Notes: generated from the sequence alone by a model not told the origin. A stretch of DNA of 64,000 nt from Burkholderiales bacterium (GCA_035259205.1 DATFWO010000318.1:7954-71953); one strand, 5' to 3'. Shown: positions 1-63,911, counted from the first letter of the stretch. Made by a program: numbers and translations.

Positions 1-15
1 TCGGAAATTTTTACA
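1..15 (+). promoter_or_regulatory. Window-truncated copy of the 17-bp box TGTCGG-N5-TTTTACA; candidate enhancer (UAS) for a sigma-54 activator
   Basis: tcggaaatttttaca matches positions 3-17 of the box found 9 more times in this window. It ends 88 bp upstream of the sigma-54 promoter at 103, in the same orientation as the downstream gene. Confidence 0.55.
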
Positions 16-102
16 ACTGGCCCGGTCCGGCGAGCCGTCCCAGCGACGTGCTAAGGCAAAAATTCATACCGTACAGGGTGTTATGGCGTTTGGGTCGGCG
101 TT

Positions 103-118
103 TGGCGCGAAACTTGCT
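103..118 (+). promoter_or_regulatory. Sigma-54 (-24/-12) promoter
   Basis: TGGCGC-GAAAC-TTGCT has exact GG-N10-GC spacing. It is intergenic, about 95 nt upstream of the ATG at 212. Confidence 0.6.
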
Positions 119-211
119 TTCGCAAAGCTGGGGTAAACAAATAGGCGCATGCCTCTGTGTGGGCCTGCGTTTTGGCCTATTCTGGGGCCTGTTCCCATGG
201 GAGATACGGCT

Positions 212-703
212 ATGAAGAAGACACGAGTTTTGGCTTTTGTTATTTTCCTTGTCGCCTGCTCGGGCCCCGCATTCGCTGGATGCGGCAGTAATCCCTCCAA
301 ATTGACTCAGGCTCAGGTAGAGACGATTCTGCCGGGAAATTTTGCATGCGCCAGATCGACGACATTGGATCCCCCGGGATGGAACGAACGGCATCTCGGG
401 AGTGCCCCAGGAGGAACCCTGCAGGAGCAGCACGAAGGGGGTAGTACCGTCGAAACGGTGGGAACCTGGGCTACATCCACGCAGGGCGGTAACGGTAGAG
501 TGACTCATACCTATTCCGCTACCGTAGCCCCGATATACGAAATCGCGGTGGTCGCAGACGGAAATTGCAATCCCAACTGCACGAACCTTCCTCAGAACTA
601 TCAATTTTGTCCTGTTGGTGGTCCAGGGGCGCCCGCTGCCCCGATCACGGTCCTCGTCACGACGGCAGCTCCCACGCTGGCCGGCTGCCCTTCCAACCCT
701 TAG
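212..703 (+). CDS. Small secreted lipoprotein, function unknown
   Basis: Internal ATG of ORF 149..703, preceded by gggaga. The N-terminus MKKTRVLAFVIFLVAC has a signal peptide plus lipobox (LVAC). The mature part is Gly/Thr/Pro-rich with paired Cys. Confidence 0.6.
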   Translation: MKKTRVLAFVIFLVACSGPAFAGCGSNPSKLTQAQVETILPGNFACARSTTLDPPGWNERHLGSAPGGTLQEQHEGGSTVETVGTWATSTQGGNGRVTHTYSATVAPIYEIAVVADGNCNPNCTNLPQNYQFCPVGGPGAPAAPITVLVTTAAPTLAGCPSNP

Positions 704-720
704 TCGTCATCGCTACATGA

Positions 721-756
721 GGTCGCCCGGGATGTTTGATCCGCATCCCGGCGACC
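721..756 (+). terminator. GC-rich imperfect hairpin downstream of the lipoprotein gene (possible terminator, no U-tract)
   Basis: ggtcgcccgggatg / catcccggcgacc forms an inverted repeat with a 9-nt loop, beginning 18 nt after the stop at 703. Confidence 0.3.
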
Positions 757-1068
757 GACGACTGCCGCGACCGGCGGCGTGCGCTTTGTTGTTACCCTGG
801 TTCCGACGCTACTCGATCCTCGCTTGCCCGTTTCGGCGCCCGGGCTCGGTACCGCTGGCTTCGTCCGCTGCGCGTGACTCTCCGCCTTCCTGATCAGCGG
901 CAGGATTTCGTTGCGGTATCGCGCGTAGCGTCGGACAACCGGGTAATTTAGTATTCTGGCGTCGCGACGATGCATGCCTCGGCGCCAGCCCGCTCGCATG
1001 CGCGGCGTGCACAGCCGCATCGAGATCCATTGACGAGCCCATATACCGAAAGTGACTCCAGCCGGCGC

Positions 1069-4000
1069 ATGACCTTGGCCGTCGCCGCCGGCTGCTACCT
1101 GCTGTTCGTCGTCTATGGCAGCTTGGTGCCGCTGGACTTCAATCCCCGGCCACTGGAAACAGCGTGGCGGGAATTTCTCGATACAAAATATCTGACACTG
1201 GGTGTCCAGTCGCGCGCGGATTGGGTCGCCAACATCCTGCTCTACATTCCGCTCGCGTATCTGCTGAGCGCCGCGTTCGGGGCGCGCACTCGGTCTGCGG
1301 CCGCTCGCGTGCTGCTGGCTGGCGCGGTGTGGCTCGCGTGTGCCGCGCTTGCGCTGGGTATCGAGTTTACGCAGTTGTTTTTCCCGCCGCGCACGGTATC
1401 CCTTAACGACATCGTCGCCGAATTCATGGGGAGCGCGCTCGGCGTCGCCATCTGGCTCGGTTGGGGCGATGCGCTTCAGCGGCTGTGGGTCGAAATGATG
1501 CGCGGCGGATTGCCGGCAATCCGCGCCGCGGTCGTTCTCTACGTGCTGGCGTATCTGGCCTTGAGCTTCTTTCCGTACGATTTTCTCGTTTCGCTGAAGG
1601 AGTTCTCGGACAAGCTCGCCTCCGGCAACTATGGATTGCTCATGGCGCCCCAAACCTGCGAGCAATTGTCGATTTGCGCCAGCAAGCTCATCGCGGAGAT
1701 CGTAGTCGTCGTTCCGCTCGGCGTATTGCTGGGCATGGCGCTCGGCAGAGCTGCGCGGCACGCCTACGCCATCGCTGCGCTGTGCGGTGTGGTGCTCGGC
1801 CTGACGATAGAGGCTGTACAGCTGGTCATCGCGTCGGGAATCTCGCAGGGCGTGTCGGTGGCGACGCGCGCGGTGGGAATGGCGATCGGCGTGGCCTGGT
1901 ACCGGCATATGCGCTGGCAGTGGCTGTATGGACTGCGGCCGTACGCCATCCTTGCCGTCCTGCTGGCGATCCCGGCCTATCTGTTTGCCGTGATGTGGGC
2001 CAACGGCTGGTTCAGCGCGCGTTGGGGAGGGCTCGAGCACGCCCATGCCAGCCTGCAGGAGGTGAACTGGCTGCCCTTCTACTACCATTACTACACCACC
2101 GAAACGGAGGCCCTGCGCAGCGCGCTGACCAACGTCGCCATCTACATGCCGATCGGTGTCCTTTACTGGATGTGGACCCTGCGCCGCTCGCATACCTATT
2201 CCGACGGTTTGACCCTGGTTCCGGCCTTGATCGCCGCGCCGCTCGCGGTGGCGATGGAAGTAGGCAAGCTGTTCGTCCCGGGAAAACATCCCGATCCGAC
2301 CGACGTGCTGATTGCGACGGTTACGGCGCCGGCAGCCTACGTCCTGGCGCGGCAATTGCAAAGATGGGCAGTGGAAGGCGAATCGGGGGCCGGGCGTATC
2401 GCGGCACACCGTGGCTCGTCGGGCGCGGCTCAGGCCGTCCCCGTTGCGTCGCAAAGCGCGGGAAGAGTGGCGGCGGCGTTGCTGCTGCTCGCCGGCACCG
2501 GCATCGCGGCGTTCTACTATCCGCTCGGCGGCGGCTGGCTGGGGTTGGCGCTGGGGCTCTACGCCGCCGTGTTGTGGCGCCATCCGGGAGCGTCCCTGCC
2601 CGCCGTGCTCGCGCTGCTGCCTTTGCTCAACTTCGCGCCGTGGAGCGGCTGGATACTGCTCAATGAATTCGACCTGCTCGTCGCGGTTACGCTGGCGGTG
2701 CGCCTGCTGCGGCCACCCCCGCCAGTTCGCGGTCCCGTCCTTACCGGGTCTGCAAAGTACGCGATTGGACTGCTCGCAGTGTCCTTCCTCGCAAGCGCCA
2801 GCGTCGGTCTCCTGCCGTTGCCGTCGTTCGACCAGAATGCGCTGGTGAGCTACTACACGGGGTTCAACAGCCTCAGGCAATTGAAGGGCTTCGCGTGGGC
2901 GCTGGCGCTGCTGCCGCTGCTGATCGAGGAGACGCAAAACCGGCGCATGGATCAGCGACTGGCTGCGGGTACGCTCGCCGGACTGTGCGCGGTGGTTGCG
3001 GTGGTCGTTTGGGAGCGCGTCGTGTTTGCGAGCCTGAAGGATTTTGCCGGCGAGTATCGTGTCGACGGCCCGTTCCCGGAGCTGCACACCGGGGGCGGGG
3101 ACGTTCACGCCTATCTCGTGATGGCGATACCGCTCGTCGTGGCGTGGATCGCGCTGCGGCCCAATGCGATCCGGATCGCGTTTGGAACCGCCCTGTTTGC
3201 ACTTGCGAGCTACGCGCTCGCAATGACCTTCACCAGGGGTGGCTACGTGGGGTACTGCGGCGCGCTGGGGGTGCTCGCGGTCTCGGCGGTGATCTACTGG
3301 GTGCGGCAGCGCGCGTGGAGGCTCGGCCCCGTCGTTGTGGCTGGCGCGCTCGGGTTGGCCGGTCTCGCAGTCATGGTCCCGATCGTATCCGGCTCCTTCA
3401 TGGGGAGCCGGCTGGCGGCAGCGCATTCGGATGCCGCTACTCGCACGCGGCACTGGGCCGAGGCCATCAACATGATGGACCGCGGCACGGCGACTGCGCT
3501 GTTCGGGATGGGGCTGGGCAGTTTTCCGAAGACCGTCGTCTTCAAGGAGCGCGACGCAGCTTCGGCGACGTTCAGCTACAGGCAGGAAGGCGGCAACAGC
3601 TATGTGCGTCTGGGCTCGGGAAAAGCCCTGTATCTCGATCAGAGGGTAGCCGTCGAGGCTGGAAAGGCGTACACGATTTCGCTGGATCTGCGCAGCCCAA
3701 ACCGGGGGGCGAAGGTTGACATTCCCATCTGCGAAAAGAGCTTCCAGTACTCGTTCCGGTGCGGAAGCGTGAGCTTTGCGGTCAAGACGCCGGGGACGGG
3801 CTGGGAACACAACGAAGCTGCTTTCAACTCGAAGGAAGTCGGATCGGGTGCGCGGTTTCTGCAGCGTCCGGTGGCGCTCGGTCTTACCAATGCGCAGCCG
3901 GGCACCCTCGTTGACGTGGACAACGTGCGGCTGCTGGATGAAAAGGGCCGCAATCTTATCGCCAACGGAGATTTCTCGCGGGGCGGCGAGCGCTGGTTCT

Positions 4001-4353
4001 TTGCGGCCGACGACCATTTGCCGTGGCACATTTTCAATCTCTGGGTGCAGGTCCTGTTCGAGCAGGGATGGGTCGGTGTCGTGGCGCTTGCGGTAGCCGT
4101 CCTGATGTCGCTGGCGCGGCTCGCAAGCGGAGCGTGGAGGGGCGAGCTCGTTTCCGGGGCGCTGCTTGCGGCCCTGTGCGGATTTCTCCTGGTCGGCCTC
4201 ACCGAGAGCCTGTTCGATGGGCCGCGCGTAACGACGTTATTTTTCCTGTTGCTGTTTGCCGGGCTTCTGCGATCTGCCGGACAGAGCGCTATCGACCGCT
4301 CCCAGCGCGATTCTGCGTCCGGCGGTTTGACTTCCGTCCATTCGATATCCTAA
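1069..4353 (+). CDS. Polytopic membrane protein: VanZ-like N-terminal repeats, O-antigen ligase (Wzy_C)-like core and a periplasmic carbohydrate-binding-like insert
   Basis: VanZ-like motifs are EFTQLFFPPRTVSLNDIVAEFMGSALG and MEVGKLFVPGKHPDPTDVLIA. There are many TM helices. Ligase-like elements are TFTRGGYVGY and ALFGMGLGSFP. A soluble stretch with NGDFSRGGERWFF resembles CBM4_9, and two more TM helices follow. The start could be the ATG at 970 rather than 1069. Confidence 0.7.
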   Translation: MTLAVAAGCYLLFVVYGSLVPLDFNPRPLETAWREFLDTKYLTLGVQSRADWVANILLYIPLAYLLSAAFGARTRSAAARVLLAGAVWLACAALALGIEFTQLFFPPRTVSLNDIVAEFMGSALGVAIWLGWGDALQRLWVEMMRGGLPAIRAAVVLYVLAYLALSFFPYDFLVSLKEFSDKLASGNYGLLMAPQTCEQLSICASKLIAEIVVVVPLGVLLGMALGRAARHAYAIAALCGVVLGLTIEAVQLVIASGISQGVSVATRAVGMAIGVAWYRHMRWQWLYGLRPYAILAVLLAIPAYLFAVMWANGWFSARWGGLEHAHASLQEVNWLPFYYHYYTTETEALRSALTNVAIYMPIGVLYWMWTLRRSHTYSDGLTLVPALIAAPLAVAMEVGKLFVPGKHPDPTDVLIATVTAPAAYVLARQLQRWAVEGESGAGRIAAHRGSSGAAQAVPVASQSAGRVAAALLLLAGTGIAAFYYPLGGGWLGLALGLYAAVLWRHPGASLPAVLALLPLLNFAPWSGWILLNEFDLLVAVTLAVRLLRPPPPVRGPVLTGSAKYAIGLLAVSFLASASVGLLPLPSFDQNALVSYYTGFNSLRQLKGFAWALALLPLLIEETQNRRMDQRLAAGTLAGLCAVVAVVVWERVVFASLKDFAGEYRVDGPFPELHTGGGDVHAYLVMAIPLVVAWIALRPNAIRIAFGTALFALASYALAMTFTRGGYVGYCGALGVLAVSAVIYWVRQRAWRLGPVVVAGALGLAGLAVMVPIVSGSFMGSRLAAAHSDAATRTRHWAEAINMMDRGTATALFGMGLGSFPKTVVFKERDAASATFSYRQEGGNSYVRLGSGKALYLDQRVAVEAGKAYTISLDLRSPNRGAKVDIPICEKSFQYSFRCGSVSFAVKTPGTGWEHNEAAFNSKEVGSGARFLQRPVALGLTNAQPGTLVDVDNVRLLDEKGRNLIANGDFSRGGERWFFAADDHLPWHIFNLWVQVLFEQGWVGVVALAVAVLMSLARLASGAWRGELVSGALLAALCGFLLVGLTESLFDGPRVTTLFFLLLFAGLLRSAGQSAIDRSQRDSASGGLTSVHSIS

Positions 4354-7910: not shown

Positions 7911-7927
7911 TGTCTAAAAATTTTACA
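7911..7927 (+). promoter_or_regulatory. 17-bp box copy (TGTCTAAAAATTTTACA)
   Basis: Matches TGTC..-N5-TTTTACA. It ends 63 bp upstream of the sigma-54 promoter at 7990, in the same orientation as the downstream gene. Confidence 0.6.
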
Positions 7928-7989: not shown

Positions 7990-8005
7990 TGGCTCAAAAA
8001 TTGCT
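7990..8005 (+). promoter_or_regulatory. Sigma-54 (-24/-12) promoter
   Basis: TGGCTC-AAAAA-TTGCT has correct spacing and lies 36 nt upstream of the ATG at 8041. Confidence 0.65.
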
Positions 8006-8040
8006 TCAGCGTGCATAGTTAATCTCTCGATTTCAAGCCC

Positions 8041-8949
8041 ATGAAACGAGCAATTATCCTGTTCATGGCGGTTATGGGATGGGCGCCGGCTGCGGTGTGG
8101 GCACTGGGCGAACCGGCGGTGCCGATCGAGGCACTCGAAGAATCGGCCGCGCGCACGGGCGATCCCGAAGCAATGACGCTGCTGGCGCAGAAGTACGAGC
8201 ACGCCGAAGGCGTCGCCAAAGATTTCAACCGGGCCAATGAGCTCTACTGCAAGGCCGCGAAACTCGGCTATGCGGAGGCGCAGTTCAAGCTCGGCTGGGT
8301 CTATGCCAATGGGCGCGGTGTGCCGCGCGACGACCACGTCGCGGCGGCGCTGTTTGCGTTGGCGGCCGATCAGGGCCACGAGTACGCCGCAAAGCTCCTT
8401 CCGTATGTGCGCCGCGATTCCGAGGCGAAATTGCCCGACTGCATGTTACCCGACACGGTCCGGGTCGCAACCGATGATCCTTTGGACTCGCCGCGCGGCC
8501 GCAGCGAGATCGAGTTGCTGGTGCACAGGCTGGCGCCGCAGTTTGCGGTGGATCCGAAGCTCGCGCTGGCGGTGATCTCCGTCGAATCTGCCTTCAATCC
8601 CGCGGCGATCTCGCCCAAGAACGCGCAAGGGTTGATGCAATTGATACCCGAGACCGCGGAGCGCTTCGGCGTGAAGCAGATCTTCAGCCCGGTCGAGAAC
8701 ATCAAGGGCGGGCTGGCGTATCTGCGCTGGCTGCTGGCGTTCTTCCAGGGCGACGTGCCGCTGGTCCTCGCGGCGTACAATGCGGGCGAGCGCGCGGTCG
8801 AGAAGTATCGCGGCATCCCTCCCTACGCGGAAACCCGCAACTACGTCAGAAAGATTACCAGCGTTTACCGCCAACCTCTTCATCCCTTCGATGCCGGCGT
8901 CGTCGAGCCTTCGCAGATCATGATCGAGGCGAAGCGCATCCGGCGCTAA
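8041..8949 (+). CDS. Secreted Sel1-repeat / lytic transglycosylase (SLT domain) protein
   Basis: Signal peptide MKRAIILFMAVMGWAPAAVWA. Sel1 repeats (AQKYEHAEGVAKDFNRANELYCKAAKLGYAEAQFKLGWVYANGRGVPRD). SLT catalytic region ISVESAFNPAAISPKNAQGLMQLIPETA and AAYNAGERAV. Confidence 0.8.
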   Translation: MKRAIILFMAVMGWAPAAVWALGEPAVPIEALEESAARTGDPEAMTLLAQKYEHAEGVAKDFNRANELYCKAAKLGYAEAQFKLGWVYANGRGVPRDDHVAAALFALAADQGHEYAAKLLPYVRRDSEAKLPDCMLPDTVRVATDDPLDSPRGRSEIELLVHRLAPQFAVDPKLALAVISVESAFNPAAISPKNAQGLMQLIPETAERFGVKQIFSPVENIKGGLAYLRWLLAFFQGDVPLVLAAYNAGERAVEKYRGIPPYAETRNYVRKITSVYRQPLHPFDAGVVEPSQIMIEAKRIRR

Positions 8950-14434: not shown

Positions 14435-14755
14435 CTAGCTCTGGACCAGATCTTCCAGGCGGCGTCTGGGTAGGGTTCCCCTTTGAGTCCCACCACTGGC
14501 GCATAGCAGGCTGGTGAGAGGGTTTCTGCGCTGGCGCCGCCGCCGTTCCTGGTGAGGGGCGCCATCGGAGACCCATTCCCCCTGAGCGAGCGGGGCGCGG
14601 GCCTGTTCCAGTCGCGCTACGACCATCTCGTTGCTGTGTAACAGGAATTCGAGAATGGTGCGCGTCTGGTTCTCTATCTTTAGCGACAGCATGTAGATGG
14701 CGGTTGCAGTCACCGCCAGTCCCACCACTATCAGCCACCCGATTAATTCATTCAT
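14435..14755 (-). CDS. Small single-pass membrane protein, unknown function
   Basis: ATG preceded by AGGA. N-terminal TM helix LIGWLIVVGLAVTATAIYML, then a short helical segment and an Arg-rich tail. A sigma-54 promoter and a 17-bp box lie upstream in the correct orientation. Confidence 0.35.
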   Translation of the reverse strand: MNELIGWLIVVGLAVTATAIYMLSLKIENQTRTILEFLLHSNEMVVARLEQARAPLAQGEWVSDGAPHQERRRRQRRNPLTSLLCASGGTQRGTLPRRRLEDLVQS

Positions 14756-14865: not shown

Positions 14866-14881
14866 CGCAATTTCCACGCCA
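14866..14881 (-). promoter_or_regulatory. Sigma-54 (-24/-12) promoter (minus strand)
   Basis: The reverse complement reads TGGCGT-GGAAA-TTGCG, about 110 nt upstream of the ATG at 14755. Confidence 0.5.
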
Positions 14882-14944: not shown

Positions 14945-14961
14945 TGTAAAATATTTCGACA
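14945..14961 (-). promoter_or_regulatory. 17-bp box copy (reverse complement TGTCGAAATATTTTACA)
   Basis: Oriented toward the minus-strand small ORF, 64 bp upstream of the minus-strand promoter at 14866-14881. It is also about 200 bp upstream of the plus-strand promoter at 15159. Confidence 0.6.
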
Positions 14962-15158
14962 GAAATTCGAGGAATTGCCGGGTAGACATTTCGCTGCTGC
15001 AAGACTCAAATCGCACAACGCGTCACGCTTCCGCCCTGTCATAAAGTCGACACGTGCGCTGAATTTCAATCACTGAGACGCACTGGTTTGGATCGGGCAT
15101 TGCCCTTTAACACCATGATTGTATTGAATTATAGGTGTTTACCTCGACGCGTTGCCGG

Positions 15159-15174
15159 TGGCACGCGGTTTGCG
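15159..15174 (+). promoter_or_regulatory. Sigma-54 (-24/-12) promoter in front of the sugar-transferase-prsK-prsR operon
   Basis: TGGCAC-GCGGT-TTGCG is a near-consensus match. The GC of the -12 element is only about 15 nt from the ATG at 15188. Confidence 0.55.
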
Positions 15175-15187
15175 GTGTAGGGCTGTC

Positions 15188-20954: not shown

Positions 20955-21021
20955 TTTTGCTACTTTCACGCTGTCTACGCGCTCGAGCACCGGCGCAATG
21001 CTCCCTCCTCGACCGACTGTG

Positions 21022-21037
21022 AGCAAGTTTCGGGCCA
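21022..21037 (-). promoter_or_regulatory. Sigma-54 (-24/-12) promoter (minus strand)
   Basis: The reverse complement reads TGGCCC-GAAAC-TTGCT, about 68 nt upstream of the ATG at 20954. Confidence 0.65.
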
Positions 21038-21135
21038 TTCGTCGCCCGTTACTATGTAACTACATGTTCTGTAACGAAGTTTATAGATGAGCATCGTCGA
21101 CCTGGAAGCGCCCATCGCGTCCGTGAAGTCCATTT

Positions 21136-21152
21136 TGTAAAAAACATGGACA
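21136..21152 (-). promoter_or_regulatory. 17-bp box copy (reverse complement TGTCCATGTTTTTTACA), proximal site
   Basis: Lies 99 bp upstream of the promoter at 21022-21037, in gene orientation. Confidence 0.55.
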
Positions 21153-21267
21153 AGGATCGCTGGAGTTGATGCATGCTTTAGCCCCAATTTTACGCTGAGA
21201 TCATCTATAACATATTGATTTAAGGACACTTCAGTTACTGGTCACACATGCTTTCGTCAATTTCAAT

Positions 21268-43473: not shown

Positions 43474-43489
43474 AGCAACGGCCGTGCCA
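43474..43489 (-). promoter_or_regulatory. Sigma-54 (-24/-12) promoter (minus strand)
   Basis: The reverse complement reads TGGCAC-GGCCG-TTGCT, a consensus-grade match, 63 nt upstream of the ATG at 43411. Confidence 0.7.
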
Positions 43490-43563: not shown

Positions 43564-43580
43564 GATAAAATTTTCCGACA
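43564..43580 (-). promoter_or_regulatory. 17-bp box copy (reverse complement TGTCGGAAAATTTTATC), proximal site
   Basis: Lies 75 bp upstream of the promoter at 43474-43489, in gene orientation. Confidence 0.55.
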
Positions 43581-43676: not shown

Positions 43677-43693
43677 TGTAAAATTTACCGACA
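43677..43693 (-). promoter_or_regulatory. 17-bp box copy (reverse complement TGTCGGTAAATTTTACA), distal site
   Basis: Lies 113 bp from the proximal copy, in gene orientation. Confidence 0.6.
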
Positions 43694-52295: not shown

Positions 52296-55200
52296 ATGCA
52301 TCCGCAGACCATCTATACCAAAACCCCCAAAGGGGTCCTTGAGATCAAGAACAAGACCATACGGCTGCCGCGCGATCTCGGCTTGTTGTTCCTCGCTGTC
52401 GACGGGAAAAGCACGGTTGCCGAGTTGCCGCAAAAAGCGCACATGGACGCCGCAAGCCTGACGCCGGCGCTCGACAGGCTCGTCGCCGACGGTTACATCA
52501 AGGTGTTTTACCAACCGTCCGAAGCGGGGCAGGCCGCGGCTCTATCCGCTGACGATCTCGACCTCGACTTCACCTCGGCCGAAGCGGTAGCCCAGCTCAA
52601 CGACGAAGCCAGAACGCGCGCGAGGGCCGAGGCGGAGGCCAAGGCGCGGGCTGATGCGGCAGCGCGCGCCGCCGCCGAGGCGAAGGCGCGTCAGGAGGCC
52701 GAAGCCAAGGCGCACGCCATCGCGCAGGCCAAAGCGAAGCTGGAGTCCGAAGGCAAGGCTCGCGCCGAAGCGGCGGCCGCTGCTGCTGCGCAGGCGCGGG
52801 CTCGAGCCGAAGCGGAGATCAAGGCGGCGACCGAAGCCCAGGCGCGCGCAGCCGCTGAGGCGCGTATGCGCGCGGCGATGGAAGCGAAGGAAAAGGCGGA
52901 AGCAGAAGCAGCCGCACGCGCCGAAGCCGAAAGCAAGGCCAAGCTCGAGGTCGCAGCCGCGATGCAGGCGGAGGCGCGCGCGCGCGCCGAGGCCGAAGCC
53001 AGAGTACGCGCCGAAACCGAAGCGCGCGCGCACGCCGGAGCCGAGGCCCGGGCGCGCGAGGCGGTCGAAGCCAAGATGCACGCCATGGAAGTGGCGCTGC
53101 GGCAGGCGGAGGAGCGGGCGAAGGCCGAGGCCGAAGCGCGCATCAGAGCCGAAGCCGAGGCCCAGGAGCGAGCGGCAGCCGAGGCCCAGGCGCGTGTCGC
53201 GGCCGATGCGCGCGCCAAAGCCGCGGAAGAGGCGATCGCGCATGCGCGAGCGATGGCTGAGGCCGCCTCGGCGGCCAGAGCCGAAGCCGAGGCGCGCGCC
53301 AAGGCCGAAGCCGAAGCGCGGGCGGCGGCGGAAGGGCGCTTCAAGGAGCGCGCGGGCGATGAGCTCAGGGGTGAAACTGAGGCGATCGTCAAAGCGGCGG
53401 AAGCAGCGCGCCAAGAGGCGCTCGCCAAGGCGCAGCAGGCGGAGCGCGCGCTCGCCGAAGCTCAGGCCAGAGCCAGAGCCGAAGCGGAAGCGCGCGCGAA
53501 AGCTGACGTGGAGGCGAGAGCCGAAGCCGAGCGGCGCGCGCAGGAGGCGGGCGAAAAACTGAAGCGCGAGAGCGAGCTGCAGATCGCTCGCGAGGAAGCG
53601 CAGGCGAGGACCCGCGCCGAGATGCGGGCGCTTGAGGACAACATCCGCAAGGCGCGCGAGGAGGCCGAGTCGAGCGCCGCAGCCGAGCGCAGGGCGCGTG
53701 AAGAGGCGGAAGCGAGCGCCGCAGCCGAGCGCAGGGCGCGCGAGGAAGCCGAGGCGACCGTCGCGACCGAGCGCAAGGCGCGCACCGAGGCGGAGGCGCA
53801 AACGGAGTTGGAGCGCCAGCTACACGAAGAAGCGTTGAAAAAAGCGTACGCCGAAATGGAGGCGCAGCTCGAAGTCGAGCGCCGGTTGCGCGCGGATGCG
53901 ATCAAGAAGGCCCGCGAGGAGGCGGAAGCCAAGGCGCGCACCGAAATCGAAGCGCGGATCGAGGCCGAGCGCAAGGCGCGCGAGGAGGCCCAGGTCAGGC
54001 TCGAGATCGAGCGCCAGGCCCGAGAGGAAGCCGAGCGCAAGGAACAGCTCGAGGTCCAGGCGCGGCTCGATGCCGAGCGCAAGGCGCAAGCCGACGCCGA
54101 GGCCAAGGCTGCGGCTGCGGCGGCAGCCAGTGCAGCCGCCGAAAAACTGATGCGGGAGGCCGCCGAAAGGTCCACGTCCACCGTGGACCTGCACGCCGTT
54201 CGCGATGAAGCCGAAAAACTGGTGGGCAATGCACGCAAGGCGCATGCGGAAGCGATCGCGAAAGCGCAGGCGGAGATGATGGCGCGCGTGCAGGCCGAGC
54301 AGCAGGCGATTGCCGAAAAGCGCGTGCGCGCCGTAGCCGAGGATCGGGCCAAGGACGAAACCGTTGCGCTCGCCACCCGGGAGCGCGACGCGCGCGAGCG
54401 CGCCGAGCGGGAGGTGATGGCCAAGCTCGAGGCCGAAAACAGGGCGCGCGAGCAGGCCGAGCTCGAAGCCGATGCCAGGGCGCGTGCCGAGGCCCAGAAG
54501 CGGGCGGAGGCGATGGCGGCCCAGTATCTGGCGGAGCGGAAGGCGGCCAGAGACGCCGCCGCCAGGGCCAGAGAGCCGGTCAAGTGGGGGCGGCTGGTGA
54601 CGATTGGCGCCCTAGCGCTGATCGCGCTCGTGGTCAGCCTGCTGCACATCGTGCCGCTATCGGTCGGCGGCACTGAAAAACTGCTAACCGAACAGTTGCA
54701 GGAGCCTGTCAGCATCGGCGCGCTGCGTTTCGCGGCGTTTCCGTCGCCGCATTTGACGGTGCAACGCATCTTCATCGGCAAGGGACAGGATGCCATGATA
54801 GAGGCGGCGACGGTTCCGGCGAGCCCGCTCGCGCTGTTCCGGGACCGGAAGCACTTTGACGAAGTACGGCTCTCCGGCGTCACGATCGATCAGGACGTCG
54901 TGCCGCGCATGGCGGGCTGGACCAAGTCAAAGAGCGGTGAGCGAAGCCTGCAGATCGACCGTCTGGAGATGAGCGGGCTCAGGGTGGCGCTGCGTGACGT
55001 CAAGCTGCCAAGCTTGAGCGCCACGATTACGCTGGGCAAGGACGGCGCGCTTCAAAAGATGGTCCTGCGCGAGCCTACCTTGAGCGTGGAGTTTACGCCG
55101 GCCGGGGATCAGGCGTGGCAGGCCGATTTCAAGGGCAAAGGCTGGCGCCCGCCGCTCGGCTTGGGAATGGAGTTCTCCGACCTGAGCGGCAGTGCGCGCA

Positions 55201-55769
55201 TCACTTCCGGGCAGGCTGTGGTCTCCGGTTTCGACGGCACGCTCTATAACGGGTCGGTCAAAGGCGAGGCGACGATCAAATGGGGCAGCAACATCAACGC
55301 GGAGGGCCGATTCAACGTGAAAGGCTCCGACCTCGGGCAGTTGCTGCCGGCCATGGCGAGCGCGTTCAGCGCCAGTGGCGCGCTCGACACCAATGCGACG
55401 TTTGCAAGCGAAGGGCAAACCCCTGGCGAGTTGCTGGCGGCGCCGCGCGTGAATGCGACGTTCACGCTGCGCAAAGGCACGATCAACAACGTTGATGTGA
55501 TGCGGGCGCTGCAGGCGCCGGGACGCACCAGCGGCAAGACTCAATTCGACGAGATCACGGGTGAAGCGCAGGTTGAGGGCAATCGCATCGCCTATCGCAA
55601 CCTCAGGCTCAACTCCGCGCCGATGCAAGCCAGCGGCGCCATCGACGTCTTGCCGAATTCCGACCTTTCAGGTCGGATCACCGTGCAGGTGGGTACTCGA
55701 ACCACCACGGTGGCGCGCGGCACGCTCAACGTTGGCGGCAGCGTGAGGAGTACCCAGCTCACCCCCTAG
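52296..55769 (+). CDS. Giant bitopic protein: small N-terminal domain, charged Ala/Glu/Arg/Lys coiled-coil of about 650 aa, one TM helix and an AsmA-like C-terminal domain
   Basis: Residues 1-75 are globular (LPRDLGLLFLAVDGKSTVAEL). Residues 103-760 are EAKARAEAE-type repeats. The TM helix is LVTIGALALIALVVSLLHIV. The C-terminal 380 aa has AsmA-like blocks (FDGTLYNGSVKGEATI, VKGSDLGQLL, FDEITGEAQVEGNRIAYRNLRLNS). Confidence 0.7.
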   Translation: MHPQTIYTKTPKGVLEIKNKTIRLPRDLGLLFLAVDGKSTVAELPQKAHMDAASLTPALDRLVADGYIKVFYQPSEAGQAAALSADDLDLDFTSAEAVAQLNDEARTRARAEAEAKARADAAARAAAEAKARQEAEAKAHAIAQAKAKLESEGKARAEAAAAAAAQARARAEAEIKAATEAQARAAAEARMRAAMEAKEKAEAEAAARAEAESKAKLEVAAAMQAEARARAEAEARVRAETEARAHAGAEARAREAVEAKMHAMEVALRQAEERAKAEAEARIRAEAEAQERAAAEAQARVAADARAKAAEEAIAHARAMAEAASAARAEAEARAKAEAEARAAAEGRFKERAGDELRGETEAIVKAAEAARQEALAKAQQAERALAEAQARARAEAEARAKADVEARAEAERRAQEAGEKLKRESELQIAREEAQARTRAEMRALEDNIRKAREEAESSAAAERRAREEAEASAAAERRAREEAEATVATERKARTEAEAQTELERQLHEEALKKAYAEMEAQLEVERRLRADAIKKAREEAEAKARTEIEARIEAERKAREEAQVRLEIERQAREEAERKEQLEVQARLDAERKAQADAEAKAAAAAAASAAAEKLMREAAERSTSTVDLHAVRDEAEKLVGNARKAHAEAIAKAQAEMMARVQAEQQAIAEKRVRAVAEDRAKDETVALATRERDARERAEREVMAKLEAENRAREQAELEADARARAEAQKRAEAMAAQYLAERKAARDAAARAREPVKWGRLVTIGALALIALVVSLLHIVPLSVGGTEKLLTEQLQEPVSIGALRFAAFPSPHLTVQRIFIGKGQDAMIEAATVPASPLALFRDRKHFDEVRLSGVTIDQDVVPRMAGWTKSKSGERSLQIDRLEMSGLRVALRDVKLPSLSATITLGKDGALQKMVLREPTLSVEFTPAGDQAWQADFKGKGWRPPLGLGMEFSDLSGSARITSGQAVVSGFDGTLYNGSVKGEATIKWGSNINAEGRFNVKGSDLGQLLPAMASAFSASGALDTNATFASEGQTPGELLAAPRVNATFTLRKGTINNVDVMRALQAPGRTSGKTQFDEITGEAQVEGNRIAYRNLRLNSAPMQASGAIDVLPNSDLSGRITVQVGTRTTTVARGTLNVGGSVRSTQLTP
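52602..54575 (+). repeat. Low-complexity GC-rich coding repeat (GCx/GAG/CGC/AAG codons) encoding the coiled-coil
   Basis: About 2 kb of degenerate A-E-A-[KR]-A-R periodic sequence. It produces long spurious ORFs in most other frames on both strands. Confidence 0.8.
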
Positions 55770-55898: not shown

Positions 55899-58685
55899 TC
55901 ACCGGCTGAGTTCCGCCAACAATTCTCTTGCTTCCTTGGCGAACCTTGAATCTGGGGAATTGGCCAGCAATTTCTCCAGTTCCTGTCGCGCTTTAGTACG
56001 ATCCCCCGTTTTGACGAGCGCCCGTGCCAGGTGGTACCGAGGTTCGGTAGCCTTGGGCATGTCGGTCACCGCCTTCTGCAGCAGCTCGAGCCCACGTTCG
56101 GCGTTGCCCCGCTCGACCAGCATCCAGCCGAGTGTGTCGGCGGCCGCCGCGTTGGGACTGAGCTTATAGGCGCGCTCCGCCGTCTCCAATGCGCGGGAAT
56201 CCTTGACGCCGTGATAGGCCACGGCGAGGTTGTTGAGCAGCTGCGCGTCGTCAGGCTGTTTTTTCAGCAACCACTCGTAGTCTTCGATTGCCTCCTTATA
56301 CATGCCGCTCTTGAGGTGATTGTCCGCGCGGTAACGCCGCACCATTGCGTCGTCCGGCGATTCCTTCAGCCACTGCGCCAGGCGCCCCTCAGCTTCCTCC
56401 GGCTTCCCGGCCCGCGTTAACGCCGCGTGCAGCTTGATCAGGACGGTGCCGCTCTTGCCCATGCCGTAGGCGACTTCGTACGCCTTGACGGCTTGCGGAA
56501 ATTTCCTCTCCGCCATCAGGACGTCGCCTTCGAGGACAAAGCCTGCGGGAGACTTGGCGGACCGCTTTTGCACCTGCTGCGCGATCTTCATCGCCTCCGA
56601 ATAACGCTTCGCGCGCAACTCGAACGCGGCGAGCGCCATTTGAGCGTCAGTGAAATCGGGCTGCAACGAAACCGCTTTGCGCAGCGCGTTCGTCGCTCTC
56701 GTCCGGTCGCCACTGACTGCGTATGCCTTAGCGAGTTGCATGAGGGCGGCCGCAGATTTGGGCTGGAGCGCGACGAGCTTCTCGTAGGTACTCACCGCCT
56801 GTTCATTCGCGCCGGCGCCGATCTGGGTGGCGCCCAATGTATGCAGCACTTCCGGATCATCCGGGCGCGCGGTCCGTGCCTGTTGTGCGACCTCCAGCGC
56901 TTTTTTCCAATCTTCGGACTTCGCGTAGGCGCGCGCCAGCATCAACTGCGGTTGCACCGAATTGGGACTCGCTTTGCGGGCGCGCTCCAACCAGTCGATC
57001 TGCTCTTTCGGCGTGGCGCCGATGCGCGCGGCGAAATTGCTGAGCGCCAGCAGAGCCTGCGTATTGTCCTTGTCCCTTTCGAGAATGGCCTCGAGGCGGC
57101 GACGCGCGCTCGCCGGCTGCTTATCCTCGAGGTCGAGTTGTGCGAGGTTAGTCGCCGCCGGCACGAAGGTCGGCTGCAGCTGGAGCGCGCGCTCGAAGGC
57201 CTTGCGCGCAGCCGCTCCTTCATTCTTGTTCCTATAGATCAAACCCTTCAGATTGTAGGTCAGCGGATTATTCGGCTGCTTCTTCTCGAAGGATTGCATC
57301 GCCTGCAGCGCCTGGTCGTAATTCGCCTGCTGCAGGAGCAACAGAACGAGCAGAAAGTCCGCGCGGTATGAGTTGGGGTCCACCGCCACCGCAGACTCTA
57401 GATCCGCCAGCGCGCGATCCGTTTCGCCGGCAGCCAATCGGCTTGCTCCCAGGCCGATGCGCGCCTCCGCGCTCTTGGGATCGAGCTTCGCCGCCTTCTC
57501 GAAATACTGGATCGCGATGGCGAACTCGTTGCTTCGCAGGTATACCTCGCCGGCGAGCGCCATCAGCGCTCCGTCTTCCGGCGCCTGCCGGAGGCTGGGC
57601 TGCAACACGTCGATGGCGCGCTGCGTCTGGCCGGCTTCCGCCAGCGACGCAATCAGCAGCTTCCGCGCATAGAGAAAGCCGGGCGCGCGTTCGACGACCT
57701 GTCCAAGGTGCGCCTGCGCTTGGGCGTGCGTTCCCAGGGCATACTCGGCCGCGCCCGCCAGCAATACGCTCGGCAGATAATCTGGCGCCACCTTGAGCAC
57801 TTCCAGCGCCGCGTCGTGCGCAACGGTGTACTTTTTCTGCTGAAACTCGATCAACGCAAGCAAGTGTTTCCTCTGTAGGAGGTTGGGAGCGAGCTTGCGC
57901 ACCTCTTCTAGTTGCTTGCGCGCCTCATCGAAGTTGCTGGCGGTGATGTGCTGCCACGCCATGTTGACGCGAGCTTGGACATCTTCCGGGCTGATCTCGA
58001 GGACCTTCTGGTAGGCCGCCATGGCGCCTGCCTGATCGGCCCTGAACCGGGCAAGATCGCCTTTCATCAGCCATGCATCTACGTTCTTCGGCGCGCTGGC
58101 GAGCGCCCGCTCGATCAATTTCGACGCTTCATCCGGTTTGTTCTGGATTGCCGCAAGGCGCGCCTGCGCGAGCAGCGCATCGGCGAACTCCGGCTGCTTG
58201 GCGAGCGCCTGCTCGAGCAGCTCGCGTCCTTCCGGGATGCGGTTGAGTCCGAACGACGCCATCGCCCGCAGTGTCAGGATTTCGGCTTGCACCGCGTCGC
58301 CGGCATTGGTGTCCGGAGGCACCTGGTCGAGCACCTTCTGGAATTCGCCCATCATCAGCAGCGACTTGCCGATCTTTACCTTGGCCAGGTCGTAACGCAG
58401 GTCCAGGGCCTTGCGCAGCTCTATTTCGGCCGATTTGAAATCACCCACGTCGTTGTAGGTCACGCCCAGGAGGTAACGCGCTTCGGCGTTCTGCGGAGAC
58501 TTCTGCAGCAGGCTCTTCAGGTGGACGATCGCGCTCCTATAGTGACCTTTGTCGCGCTCCTGCCTGGCGTCCGCAAGAATTTGCTCGGGGTTCGCGCTCT
58601 GCTCCTTGCAACCTGAGGAAAGCAGCAGGAGCGAGAGCACCACTGCGCACGCTGCGAAGCCGCGCATGTTTCTGGTTCTGATCAT
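55899..58685 (-). CDS. PrsT-like TPR-repeat lipoprotein (paralog 4 of 4)
   Basis: 928 aa of TPR repeats. Lipobox LLLSSGC. Highly similar to 29314..32109. Confidence 0.8.
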   Translation of the reverse strand: MIRTRNMRGFAACAVVLSLLLLSSGCKEQSANPEQILADARQERDKGHYRSAIVHLKSLLQKSPQNAEARYLLGVTYNDVGDFKSAEIELRKALDLRYDLAKVKIGKSLLMMGEFQKVLDQVPPDTNAGDAVQAEILTLRAMASFGLNRIPEGRELLEQALAKQPEFADALLAQARLAAIQNKPDEASKLIERALASAPKNVDAWLMKGDLARFRADQAGAMAAYQKVLEISPEDVQARVNMAWQHITASNFDEARKQLEEVRKLAPNLLQRKHLLALIEFQQKKYTVAHDAALEVLKVAPDYLPSVLLAGAAEYALGTHAQAQAHLGQVVERAPGFLYARKLLIASLAEAGQTQRAIDVLQPSLRQAPEDGALMALAGEVYLRSNEFAIAIQYFEKAAKLDPKSAEARIGLGASRLAAGETDRALADLESAVAVDPNSYRADFLLVLLLLQQANYDQALQAMQSFEKKQPNNPLTYNLKGLIYRNKNEGAAARKAFERALQLQPTFVPAATNLAQLDLEDKQPASARRRLEAILERDKDNTQALLALSNFAARIGATPKEQIDWLERARKASPNSVQPQLMLARAYAKSEDWKKALEVAQQARTARPDDPEVLHTLGATQIGAGANEQAVSTYEKLVALQPKSAAALMQLAKAYAVSGDRTRATNALRKAVSLQPDFTDAQMALAAFELRAKRYSEAMKIAQQVQKRSAKSPAGFVLEGDVLMAERKFPQAVKAYEVAYGMGKSGTVLIKLHAALTRAGKPEEAEGRLAQWLKESPDDAMVRRYRADNHLKSGMYKEAIEDYEWLLKKQPDDAQLLNNLAVAYHGVKDSRALETAERAYKLSPNAAAADTLGWMLVERGNAERGLELLQKAVTDMPKATEPRYHLARALVKTGDRTKARQELEKLLANSPDSRFAKEARELLAELSR

Positions 58686-58813: not shown

Positions 58814-58829
58814 TGGCGCGCTAATTGCT
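58814..58829 (+). promoter_or_regulatory. Sigma-54 (-24/-12) promoter
   Basis: TGGCGC-GCTAA-TTGCT lies 29 nt upstream of the GTG at 58858. Confidence 0.55.
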
Positions 58830-58857
58830 TTCCCTGTCCGGCGGGGCAGGGGGAAAA

Positions 58858-59088
58858 GTGAGAATTCTTTCCAGGGAGAAATTCAAAGTGCTGGCCGAGA
58901 GAAACGGCTGGTCGCTCGCACGTGCGGAAGGCTTTGTCGACGGCGAATCGTTTCGTCGCCGCGGCAAACGGCCTCCAAATTACGTTCTCGTAGGAATTGA
59001 CGAGTATTGCCAGGGTTTTCGGGCGGGCTACTTCGAGCGCAAGCCGGCGTCCGCCAGGAATCAACCCTCGAGCGCAAAGAAGCTGTAG
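58858..59088 (+). CDS. Conserved small cytoplasmic protein (76 aa), paralog of 24323..24580
   Basis: The GTG start is preceded by agggggaaaa. The ORF-track TTG start at 58825 lies inside the -12 element. VRILSREKFKVLAERNGWSLARAEGFVDGE ... LVGIDEYCQGFRAGYFER aligns with the first copy from its residue 1. Confidence 0.6.
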   Translation: MRILSREKFKVLAERNGWSLARAEGFVDGESFRRRGKRPPNYVLVGIDEYCQGFRAGYFERKPASARNQPSSAKKL

Positions 59089-61398: not shown

Positions 61399-61414
61399 TC
61401 CTGGCGGAGCGCGC

Positions 61415-62569
61415 ATGCACGTATTCAAGCTGATTTTCAAGAACGCGCTGCGCCACAAATTGCGTACCGCACTGACGGTCGTCGGCCTGCTGGTCGCGGT
61501 GCTCGCGTACGGGCTGCTGCAGACCGTGGTCGACGCGTGGTATGCCGGCGCGCAGGCCGCTTCCAGCGGGCGCCTGATCACGCGCAATTCGATATCCCTG
61601 GTGTTTTCCATGCCCGTCAGCTATGAGGCGCGTATCCGCGCCGTGGAGGGGGTGACGACAGTTGCACGGTCGAACTGGTTCGGCGGTGTCTATCAGGACA
61701 GCAGGAAGTTTTTCGCGCAATTCGCGGTATCCGACAACTATCTCGATCTCTACCCCGAGTTCGTGCTGCCCGCAGCCGAGCGTCAGGCCTGGCTGCGCGA
61801 TCGCAAGGGATGCGTCGTGGGAAGGCAGCTTGCCGAGCTCTACGGATTCAAGGTAGGCGACGTGCTGCCCCTGCGCGGCACCATTTTTCCAGGGACCTGG
61901 GAGTTCGTGGTGCGGGGGATATTCGACGGCAGTGACAGCACCAAGATCACCCGGCATATGCTGTTTCACTGGGACTACCTCAACGAGACGTTGCGCAAGA
62001 CCGCCAGACAGCGCGCCGACCAGGCGGGAATCTACATCGTGGGCATCGAGCATCCGGAAAACGCGGCGGCCGTCGCGCGGGCGATCGATGCGACGTTCAA
62101 GAACTCGCTGGCCGAGACCCTCACGGAATCCGAGCAGGCGTTCCAGCTCGGATTCGTCGCGATGTCGAACGAGATCATCGCCGCGATCCGGCTGGTCTCG
62201 TACGTCGTGATCCTGATCATCATGGCGGTAATGGCGAATACGATGGCGATGAGCGCGCGCGAGCGCACGCCCGAGTATGCGACGCTCAAGGCGCTCGGCT
62301 TCGGCCCGGGATTTCTCGCGCTGCTGATCTTCGGAGAATCGCTGGCGATCGCCGCGGTCGGCGGAGGACTCGGCGTCCTCGCGACGCCGCCAGCAGCGCA
62401 GGGGTTCAAGCATTTTGCGGGGACCTATTTCCCCGTATTCGAAGTGTCGGTCCTCACGCTCGGCCTGCAGTCGCTGTGCGCGGCGGTGGTCGGCGTCGCC
62501 GCGGCGGTCGTCCCTGCGATCCGCGTCTCTCACATACGCATCGCCGAGGGGCTGCGGGCGATCGGGTAG
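61415..62569 (+). CDS. ABC transporter permease (FtsX family), subunit 1
   Basis: MHVFKLIFKNALRHKLRTALT, a periplasmic loop and the FtsX C-terminal TM bundle (RTPEYATLKALGFG). Confidence 0.8.
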   Translation: MHVFKLIFKNALRHKLRTALTVVGLLVAVLAYGLLQTVVDAWYAGAQAASSGRLITRNSISLVFSMPVSYEARIRAVEGVTTVARSNWFGGVYQDSRKFFAQFAVSDNYLDLYPEFVLPAAERQAWLRDRKGCVVGRQLAELYGFKVGDVLPLRGTIFPGTWEFVVRGIFDGSDSTKITRHMLFHWDYLNETLRKTARQRADQAGIYIVGIEHPENAAAVARAIDATFKNSLAETLTESEQAFQLGFVAMSNEIIAAIRLVSYVVILIIMAVMANTMAMSARERTPEYATLKALGFGPGFLALLIFGESLAIAAVGGGLGVLATPPAAQGFKHFAGTYFPVFEVSVLTLGLQSLCAAVVGVAAAVVPAIRVSHIRIAEGLRAIG

Positions 62570-62589
62570 GCATCGTGGCCGTTCCGTAC

Positions 62590-63741
62590 ATGTATGTTGC
62601 TCGCAACCTGTGGACGCGGCGACTTACCACCGCGCTCACCGCGGGCGGTCTGGCGCTGGTCGTCTACGTCTTCACTACGGTGCTCATGCTGGACGCAGGG
62701 CTCAAGCGTACCCTCGTGACTACGGGCGAGTACGACAACGTGATCGTCATCCGCAAGGGCGCCGAGACCGAGATCCAGAGCGGCATCTACCGCGATCAGG
62801 CGGCGATCGTCGAAATGCATCCGGCCGTGGCACTCGGCCCCGGCGGCGAGCGCATGGCGTCGAAGGAAACCGTAGTGCTGATATCTCTTGCCAGGCGCGG
62901 GGACGACAAGCCCTCCAACGTCGTCATACGCGGCACCTCCGCGACGGGGCTCATGCTGCGACCGCAGGTAAGGCTCTCCGCAGGACGCATGTTCCGCCCT
63001 GGCACGTCCGAGATCGTCGTGGGCAGGAGCATCGCCGCCCGGTTCGAAGACGCGGACATCGGTGACGTGCTGCGCTTCGCGCAGCGCGACTGGATCGTCG
63101 TGGGGAGCTTCGATGCCGCGGGCAGCGGGTTCGACTCCGAGGTGTGGGGGGACGTCGAGCAGCTGATGCAGTCGTTTCGCCGCATCGCGTACTCCTCGAT
63201 GGTCGTGCGCCTCGCCGATACCGGGGCCTACGAACGCTTCAAGTCGGATATCGACGCGGATCCGCGGCTCAGCAACGAGAGCAAGCGCGAGCAGGTTTTC
63301 TACAGCGACCAGTCGCGAGTGCTGTCGAACTTCATCAGCATCCTCGGGTTGACGCTGTCGGCCATCTTCTCGATCGGCGCGATGATCGGCGCGATGATCA
63401 CGATGTACGCTTCGGTCGCAAACCGGGTGGGGGAGATCGGCACGCTGCGCGCGCTGGGATTTACACGGCGGGCAGTGCTCGGCGCCTTTCTCTTCGAGTC
63501 GCTGCTCCTGGGACTCGTGGGCGGAGCGGCGGGCCTGGTGCCGGCCTCGTTCATGCAGCTCGCGTCCTTCTCCACGATCAATTTCCAGACCTTTGCCGAC
63601 CTTTCCTTCCGCTTCGTCCTCACGCCCGGTATCGCTTTTCAGGCGCTGCTCTTCGCGTTGGTCATGGGCCTGATCGGCGGCTTCCTGCCCGCGGTGCGCG
63701 CAGCCAGGCTCAACATCGTCGATGCGCTGCGTGCTGCCTGA
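62590..63741 (+). CDS. ABC transporter permease (FtsX family), subunit 2
   Basis: MYVARNLWTRRLTTALTAGG and the FtsX C-terminal domain (VGEIGTLRALGFTR). The GTG at 62575 is an alternative start. Confidence 0.8.
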   Translation: MYVARNLWTRRLTTALTAGGLALVVYVFTTVLMLDAGLKRTLVTTGEYDNVIVIRKGAETEIQSGIYRDQAAIVEMHPAVALGPGGERMASKETVVLISLARRGDDKPSNVVIRGTSATGLMLRPQVRLSAGRMFRPGTSEIVVGRSIAARFEDADIGDVLRFAQRDWIVVGSFDAAGSGFDSEVWGDVEQLMQSFRRIAYSSMVVRLADTGAYERFKSDIDADPRLSNESKREQVFYSDQSRVLSNFISILGLTLSAIFSIGAMIGAMITMYASVANRVGEIGTLRALGFTRRAVLGAFLFESLLLGLVGGAAGLVPASFMQLASFSTINFQTFADLSFRFVLTPGIAFQALLFALVMGLIGGFLPAVRAARLNIVDALRAA

Positions 63742-63761
63742 GCCGCGCGACGGTTTCTAGC

Positions 63762-63778
63762 TGTCGAGGATTTTTACA
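63762..63778 (+). promoter_or_regulatory. 17-bp box copy (TGTCGAGGATTTTTACA), distal site of a pair
   Basis: Lies 21 nt after the permease stop, plus orientation, pointing at a gene beyond the window end. Confidence 0.55.
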
Positions 63779-63894
63779 ACAAAGACGAGAGGGGACGAGC
63801 GTATGGGTCGCTGCAGAGACACAATTTTTCAATTGGTTAGCGCACGAACCGGGTCCAGGGGGCTGAGGCCCATTCCCAATTCCGACCTGAACTC

Positions 63895-63911
63895 TGTCGG
63901 AAAATTTTACA
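63895..63911 (+). promoter_or_regulatory. 17-bp box copy (TGTCGGAAAATTTTACA), proximal site of a pair
   Basis: This is the best consensus copy, 133 bp from the distal copy. The target promoter or gene is presumably at or beyond position 64000. Confidence 0.6.

Follow-up and report, generated by a model that had tools for sequence, protein, structure and literature searches.

The PEP-CTERM box and related sigma-54 enhancers

The PEP-CTERM box is a published 17-nucleotide (nt) element found upstream of sigma-54 promoters, and it is the closest described counterpart of the sequences considered here. These are ten 17-mers in a stretch of DNA from a Burkholderiales bacterium (GCA_035259205.1, DATFWO010000318.1:7954-71953). 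The stretch, 64 kb long, is called the window below, and the coordinates and strands of the boxes are counted from its start. With a probability of roughly 85%, the ten 17-mers are the PEP-CTERM box, that is, motif 1 of Haft et al. 2006, and act as upstream activating sites for sigma-54 promoters of the PrsK/PrsR regulon. They are then a rediscovery of a known, published element in a new genome, that of an uncultured bacterium.

Motif 1 was described by Haft, Paulsen, Ward and Selengut in 2006 (BMC Biol 4:29, PMC1569441). According to the text of that paper, TTTACA is the 3' end of the 17-nt motif, which is "sometimes repeated" and is followed, after a spacer with a mean of 62.8 nt (standard deviation 10.6, range 32-92), by a 17-nt motif 2. 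Motif 2 has the -24(GG)/-12(GC) pattern of sigma-54 promoters, and the mean distance from it to the start codon is 71 nt. Motif 1 was located upstream of 99 of the 167 proteobacterial PEP-CTERM genes and also of a small number of other genes; it was absent from coding DNA, and its setting is that of large intergenic regions before single PEP-CTERM genes. Its phylogenetic profile is described there as equal to that of PrsR, PrsK and PrsT, and PrsR was proposed as the protein that binds it because these species distributions match (PMC1569441).

Genetic studies of the system have been published. In Zoogloea resiniphila, both the transcription of PEP-CTERM genes and floc formation require PrsK, PrsR and RpoN (Gao et al. 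2018, as summarised in PMC9012009), and the same summary states that PEP-CTERM gene transcription is lost in prsK and prsR mutants. In Aquincola tertiaricarbonis, a -24/-12 start site has been mapped for pepA and is RpoN1-dependent; a "previously predicted enhancer sequence" lies upstream, for which the authors consider that "more experiments" are "needed" (PMC9850573). Aquincola and Zoogloea are experimentally studied organisms, whereas the bacterium of the window is uncultured.

The sites of NtrC (NR-I) share with the box a length of 17 bp, a 6-5-6 geometry, a TG start and a CA end. The NtrC enhancer, TGCACC-N5-GGTGCA, consists of good dyads which usually occur as adjacent pairs and are active in either orientation. 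NtrC and PrsR are both response-regulator-type sigma-54 activators with a Fis-type helix-turn-helix, and action by looping from about 100 bp or more upstream of the -24/-12 element, as in NtrC, is predicted for the box. Unlike NtrC sites, the PEP-CTERM box is asymmetric, usually single and orientation-locked in natural promoters.

The upstream activating sequence of NifA is TGT-N10-ACA, and a dependence on the face of the helix has been reported for it. The box resembles it in the outer TGT/ACA triplets and in being an upstream activating sequence of sigma-54 promoters. It differs in having N11 instead of N10 and in its extra conserved inner bases, which are not symmetric (CG in the left arm, TT in the right). 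NifA is, moreover, a GAF-domain protein, whereas PrsR is a two-component response regulator.

Sequence and frequency of the box

The first-pass annotation had listed ten 17-mers, and pattern and position weight matrix (PWM) checks of the window found every one of them with the sequence, position and strand given there. The window begins inside the first copy. The opening of this copy, guessed as "tg", was confirmed by an independent metagenomic contig (L202) which is identical through the region and supplies the full box, TGTCGGAAATTTTTACA, at its positions 418-434. The formula that headed the list, TGTCGG-N5-TTTTACA, comprises 18 nt and has zero matches. It was a miscount, as the listed 17-mers read TGTCGG-N5-TTTACA, which is the correct formula and is equivalent to TGTCGG-N4-TTTTACA.

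Exact matches to TGTC-N7-TTTACA number 8 in the window, against 0.00 expected from 100 dinucleotide-preserving shuffles. When up to two mismatches to TGTCGG-N5-TTTACA are allowed, 11 matches are found against 1.8 expected, and nine of these are the complete sites of the annotation. The heptamer TTTTACA occurs nine times in the 64 kb, each time as part of a box. The 3' end is TTTACA in nine of the ten copies and TTTATC in the remaining one, and the following base is A in nine of ten, a count that agrees with the annotation. A PWM trained on the nine complete boxes scores them at 25.6-31.5 bits (18.5-30.3 bits when each is left out in turn), and the runner-up anywhere in the window reaches 15.5 bits. 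This runner-up, TGCCGGGAAATTTTGCA at 330-346, lies within the coding region of the first box-controlled gene and is probably a chance match.

The centre of the box is consistently A/T-rich, and its arms, TGTCGG and, on the other strand, TGTAAA, have only TGT in common. The asymmetry is strong, since the PWM gives 5-12 bits on the reverse strand and 25-31 bits on the forward strand. The two-fold symmetry of half-sites seen in NtrC-type enhancers is absent; TGT/ACA is the sole symmetric part, in line with the weak dyad that had been described for the outer TGT-N11-ACA.

An A/T-rich motif located in intergenic islands of 48-55% GC, in a window of about 63% GC overall, could be a series of chance matches or the remnant of a mobile repeat. 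Such an origin is hardly credible. From base composition, about 0.01 exact matches would be expected in the 7.2 kb of intergenic DNA against the 8 observed, the dinucleotide shuffles yield 0, and the same box is found in distant genera; the reading as chance matches is refuted by the observed and expected counts. The similarity around the boxes is limited to about 25 nt, so that no transposon-like unit is present, and a mobile repeat or a larger duplicated unit was rejected. A structured RNA was also considered and rejected, with no Rfam family found anywhere in the window.

Location, orientation and sigma-54 partners

A gene map was built from codon-position GC content and family searches. 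On this map the intergenic share of the window is 7.2 kb (11%), and all ten boxes fall within it, as the first-pass annotation had claimed. The boxes are grouped in seven intergenic regions, and each of them is oriented toward the downstream gene.

Sigma-54 elements were scanned for as TGGCACG-N4-TTGCW, with GG and GC obligatory. Canonical GG-N10-GC elements, intergenic and on the same strand, lie downstream of the proximal boxes in five of the seven regions, at spacers of 87, 62, 63, 98 and 74 nt (range 62-98), and the leaders between these elements and the start codons measure 35-110 nt. In three regions a distal box is also present, 113-133 bp farther upstream than the proximal one and 187-230 nt from the sigma-54 element. 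These proximal and distal distances agree with the 60-235 bp proposed earlier. Since no second sigma-54 promoter was seen by eye between distal and proximal boxes, the distal boxes are read as extra activator sites for the same promoter. Counted by orientation, 5-7 promoters of the window lie in the box direction and 0 in the reverse.

The claim of sigma-54 partners holds in its canonical form for five proximal boxes; the partner of the box at 24899 is non-canonical and that of the box at 63895 is cut by the window end.

TTTACA is one position off the -35 consensus TTGACA, and the boxes could therefore be suspected to be -35 hexamers marking sigma-70 housekeeping promoters. At 16-18 nt downstream, none of the ten copies has a -10 hexamer better than 3/6, and for this reason the box is not regarded as a sigma-70 -35 element. 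A consensus scan of 20900-25200 yielded no sigma-70-type promoter. Nor is there room in such a promoter for a conserved TGTCG arm 11 nt farther upstream or for a constant distance to -24/-12. A sigma-70 function is accordingly given almost no credence.

Correspondence with motif 1 and recurrence in other genomes

Every feature given in the text of PMC1569441 is matched by the boxes of the window. They are 17 nt long with TTTACA at the 3' end, and some promoters have them in more than one copy; spacers of 62, 63, 74 and 87 nt to the sigma-54 element fall inside the published 32-92 nt and that of 98 nt just outside. The sites are non-coding and stand upstream of PEP-CTERM genes and occasional others, and PrsR, PrsK and PrsT are all encoded. 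Nothing essential differs from motif 1. The lineage of the window has two additions, an invariant T at position 11 and a trailing A behind ACA. Its spacers extend slightly further (62-98 nt, where the published range stops at 92), and at least three of the seven promoters stand before non-PEP-CTERM genes, which is an unusually high proportion. That the box also fronts genes of other kinds had been remarked in the annotation and is a point already made in the 2006 paper.

The annotation had left undecided whether the 17-mer is the published consensus or a lineage-specific version. No paper that spells out the consensus in words was found in a full-text literature search. TGTCG(G) is common to sites in Dechloromonas, a genus included in the 2006 paper, and in other genera. 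The core TGTCG...TTTACA is found in other genera too, and the T at position 11 and the trailing A are specific to the lineage.

Around PrsR relatives, 80 loci were fetched, of which 50 hold PrsR orthologues, mostly with at least 53% identity. A box was called at a PWM score of at least 13 bits with a sigma-54 element within 25-260 nt. In the loci of PrsR orthologues (839 kb) this unit occurs 12 times in the forward and twice in the reversed orientation; around unrelated enhancer-binding proteins (434 kb) it occurs once in each. The architecture is present in Dechloromonas, Propionivibrio, Rugosibacter, Sulfuriferula, Roseateles and Alkalimonas. When metagenome contigs were scanned without regard to orientation for TGTCGG-N4-TTTTACAA, 123 matches were obtained, many of them necessarily due to chance, and a sigma-54 element lies 25-130 nt past the ACA end in 16 of these and past the TGT end in 3.

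About half of the downstream genes in these other sequences terminate in a classical VPEP...RRR sorting signal. The remainder include a conserved family of about 230 aa, located next to prsR in Rhodocyclales (loci L008, L009, L012, L014 and L016, from Dechloromonas, Rugosibacter and Propionivibrio). Its members carry a twin-arginine-like signal (RRRLLK) and the motif ASRPVLAWHCKSPS, and in each genome the gene is fronted by a PEP-CTERM box and a sigma-54 promoter. Judged from these promoters, the family is predicted to belong to the PrsR regulon of Rhodocyclales as a conserved component that is not of the PEP-CTERM type. No homology was found between the non-PEP-CTERM targets of the window and the box-fronted genes elsewhere.

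PrsR as the predicted binding protein

The window encodes PrsR, as had been noted from the sequence (18693-20075, + strand; TIGR02915, 750 bits against a cut-off of 503). The protein is full-length, with a receiver domain, a Walker A motif, the GAFTGA motif and a C-terminal Fis-type helix-turn-helix, and its best identity among 185,579 species representatives is 73%, to a metagenome-assembled Massilia genome. The sensor histidine kinase PrsK precedes it (16618-18696, +; TIGR02916, 876 bits). Four PrsT paralogues (TIGR02917) are encoded at 21346-24246 (-), 26443-29211 (+), 29305-32109 (+) and 55899-58685 (-), with scores of 677-919 bits. The matches of PrsK, PrsR and PrsT all far exceed the equivalog cut-offs. 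The proposal that the box is a candidate site for PrsR is supported by the match to motif 1 together with the presence of PrsR in the window, and binding is predicted.

From family knowledge and the published genetics, a mechanism can be outlined for the PEP-CTERM box, in which PrsR would be the binder and transcription would depend on RpoN. The membrane kinase PrsK would detect a signal and phosphorylate the receiver domain of PrsR. PrsR would then dock on the box via its C-terminal Fis-type helix-turn-helix and oligomerise, and DNA looping would bring it into contact with the closed complex of sigma-54 RNA polymerase at the -24/-12 element, 62-98 nt downstream of the proximal box. Its AAA+ domain, with the GAFTGA loop, would open the promoter using ATP. 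The seven promoters predicted to be under PrsR in this way would serve three PEP-CTERM-type secreted proteins, three other envelope or exopolysaccharide genes and one gene beyond the window.

It is conceivable, at a low probability, that the box is the enhancer of these promoters but is bound by another enhancer-binding or accessory DNA-binding protein encoded elsewhere. A full-text literature search found no biochemical evidence tying PrsR to the box, just 64 kb of the genome are visible, and an asymmetric site (5-12 against 25-31 bits) is atypical for a symmetric Fis-type dimer. However, PrsR is the single sigma-54 activator in the window, and the species distribution of motif 1 is, by the account in PMC1569441, exactly that of PrsR, PrsK and PrsT. 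The unit of box and promoter also shows enrichment around orthologues of PrsR but none around other enhancer-binding proteins, and the Zoogloea prsK and prsR mutants lose PEP-CTERM gene transcription, as summarised in PMC9012009.

Several points weigh against the assignment of the boxes to motif 1 and PrsR. A full-text literature search found no experiment on the binding of PrsR to the box, and the published pairing of the two is based on co-occurrence. Positions 1-11 of motif 1 are matched only indirectly, via sites in other genera. Within the window, the promoter after the box at 24899 has no canonical GG, another promoter runs off the end of the window, and one spacer, of 98 nt, is longer than any in the published range (up to 92 nt). 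An asymmetric, orientation-locked box is unusual for a symmetric-dimer site that acts by looping. Curated domain thresholds are passed by just one of the three PEP-CTERM-type targets, and rpoN is not among the genes of the 64-kb window.

Spacing and possible polarity of the box

In all, 31 spacers between box and promoter were pooled, taken from the PrsR loci and the metagenome matches as well as from the window. They cluster at 60-64 nt (14 sites), 72-74, 85-87, 96-98, 105-108 and 114-117 nt, with a best period of 11.0-11.3 nt. The spacers outside the main mode give a Rayleigh R of 0.66 (Monte Carlo P 0.003 over periods 9-13) and share the phase of the mode. Such a ladder, with steps of about 11 nt, fits what is expected from looping that depends on the face of the helix; it is considered a lead and not a result, because the samples are small and partly pattern-selected. 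The box lies almost always with TTTACA toward the promoter.

From this ladder (63, 73, 86, 97, 106 and 115 nt), it can be tentatively suggested that the PEP-CTERM box is a polar enhancer. The TTTACA arm would have to face the promoter on the same face of the helix, PrsR would be oriented on its asymmetric site, and in this lineage the regulon would extend to wall-remodelling and polysaccharide chain-length genes. This is more doubtful than the identity of the box itself. If true, it would set the box in contrast to the orientation-independent enhancers of NtrC and NifA. The ideas of polarity, helical face and extended regulon do not appear in the text of PMC1569441.

One metagenomic box, at 2108-2124 of locus L119, is flanked by near-perfect sigma-54 elements on both sides, 105 nt away in the box orientation and 92 nt in the mirrored one. 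It may act as an enhancer in both directions, contrary to the orientation lock.

A related proposal, which refines the identification as the PEP-CTERM box and does not exclude it, is that the 17-mer is a composite polar element. It would join a PrsR half-site or dimer site to a second function in the A/T tract or the TTTACA arm, such as a bend or a second protein, and orientation and helical face would be mechanistically required. The orientation bias (12:2 and 16:3 elsewhere, 5-7:0 in the window), the spacer ladder, the constant A/T-rich centre and the arms TGTCGG and TGTAAA, alike only in TGT, are in its favour. However, no second factor has been identified and the IHF consensus is present in just one spacer. 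The sigma-54 elements on both sides of the L119 box suggest that a box can serve both directions, and the orientation statistics come from small, pattern-selected samples. A composite element is rather unlikely. IHF was also considered as a general part of the unit and was rejected, the full consensus being found only in the spacer that follows the box at 43564.

The seven promoters and their targets

Among the seven promoters, three serve PEP-CTERM-type genes, three serve other genes and one target lies beyond the window. The complete boxes were detected by both pattern and PWM, that at 43564 with a pattern allowing up to two mismatches.

The box cut by the window start (1-15, +) is followed after 87 nt by the -24/-12 element TGGCGCGAAACTTGCT (103-118, +). 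The target is a lipoprotein-like protein of 163 aa without a PEP-CTERM domain (212-703, +), after which stands a gene for a VanZ/Wzy_C membrane protein (970-4353). The second region holds the box TGTCTAAAAATTTTACA (7911-7927, +) and, 62 nt after it, the element TGGCTCAAAAATTGCT (7990-8005, +), in front of a gene for a Sel1-repeat and SLT lytic transglycosylase (8041-8949, +). The next gene, 9039-10949, is chain-length-determinant-like (TIGR03007/TIGR03017, below cut-off); its C-terminal region weakly matches tyrosine recombinase models, an unusual fusion.

On the - strand, the box TGTCGAAATATTTTACA (14945-14961) is followed after 63 nt by TGGCGTGGAAATTGCG (14866-14881). Its target (14435-14755, -) is a small protein (106 aa) whose N-terminal segment is hydrophobic and putatively lies in the membrane; searches gave no family match for it, and its codon-position GC pattern is coding-like. 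The fourth region, also on the - strand, contains a distal box, TGTCGGTTTTTTTTACA (21268-21284), and a proximal box, TGTCCATGTTTTTTACA (21136-21152), followed after 98 nt by TGGCCCGAAACTTGCT (21022-21037). The target is a secreted Gly/Ser-rich protein (20169-20954, -) with a degenerate PEP-CTERM-like C-terminus, below threshold.

The same 17-mer, TGTCGGTTTTTTTTACA, is found at 24899-24915 (+). The only sigma-54 candidate downstream of it is GAGCATGAATATTGCT (25002-25017, +), a non-canonical and uncertain element with AG for GG. Its spacer of 86 nt falls on the ladder described above, which supports this candidate. The target (25122-26219, +) is a PEP-CTERM-like protein with VPA replacing PEP, just below the thresholds (PF07589, 18.5 against 20.7; TIGR02595, 15.8 against 16).

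The sixth region (- strand) comprises a distal box, TGTCGGTAAATTTTACA (43677-43693), and a proximal box, TGTCGGAAAATTTTATC (43564-43580), in which ATC replaces ACA. A perfect sigma-54 element, TGGCACGGCCGTTGCT (43474-43489), lies 74 nt after the proximal box, and the spacer between them contains the IHF-consensus site TATCAAGTAGTTA. The target (42425-43411, -) is a PEP-CTERM protein which passes both thresholds (PF07589, 26.7 against 20.7; TIGR02595, 21.8 against 16). Its product weakly resembles the flocculation protein PepA family, at 33.9 bits against a cut-off of 80. In Aquincola, pepA sits next to prsT and is RpoN-dependent with a predicted enhancer upstream, an arrangement like the architecture of the window.

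The last region holds a distal box, TGTCGAGGATTTTTACA (63762-63778, +), and a proximal box, TGTCGGAAAATTTTACA (63895-63911, +). After 77 nt follows the probable -24 half of a sigma-54 element (TGGTACGGTCTA..., 63989-64000, +), cut by the window end. The target of these boxes lies outside the window, past position 64000, and exact-protein look-ups toward the sequence beyond the end returned short contigs only, with no record for PrsR or for the PepA-like protein.

Other genes of the window

The content of the window is that of a PEP-CTERM/exosortase-type exopolysaccharide region. In addition to the genes described above, it encodes an exosortase-associated acyltransferase, sugar-nucleotide enzymes and ABC exporters. 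A gene for the exosortase itself (XrtA/EpsH) was not seen in the 64 kb.

The first gene of the prsK-prsR cluster encodes a TIGR03013 XrtA/PEP-CTERM system glycosyltransferase, epsB2-like (15152-16579, +), translation of which probably begins with the ATG at 15188. At 15159-15174 there is a sigma-54-like element, TGGCACGCGGTTTGCG, at the start of the epsB2-prsK-prsR cluster and almost on the start codon, 197 nt from the box at 14945, which points the other way. Autoregulation of the cluster was considered and is unsupported, as 0 of 25 other PrsR loci have a box upstream of epsB2. A sigma-54-like element with up to two mismatches is found there in just 5 of the 25, at varying positions.

Two paralogous small genes, 24271-24580 and 58814-59088 (85 and 76 aa, with 74-79% DNA identity), each stand divergently beside a prsT paralogue. 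They have good upstream -24/-12 elements, TGGTCCGGAAATTGCT and TGGCGCGCTAATTGCT, and in both cases no upstream PEP-CTERM box and no family match were found. They may be sigma-54 genes with another activator or an unrecognised site.

Two further genes have unusual structures. A fused MFS/spermidine-synthase-like membrane protein of 990 aa is encoded within the exopolysaccharide locus (32117-35089). Degenerate tandem repeats rich in Ala/Glu/Arg take up about 2 kb (52590-54500) of an open reading frame of 1157 aa (52296-55769); the N-terminus of its product is weakly MarR-like and the C-terminus AsmA-like, and GC rises to 72% there.

Significance for the PEP-CTERM regulon

Conceptually, the window holds nothing new; it is a clean example of the PEP-CTERM box and has seven promoters within its 64 kb. 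Modest refinements to the published element are the locked orientation and the spacer ladder with its steps of about 11 nt. PEP-CTERM proteins, exosortase and PrsK/PrsR govern the formation of the floc and biofilm matrix in activated-sludge and sediment bacteria, and knowledge of the enhancer makes the PrsR regulon readable directly from sequence. As the window illustrates, this regulon can take in envelope genes other than those of PEP-CTERM proteins.

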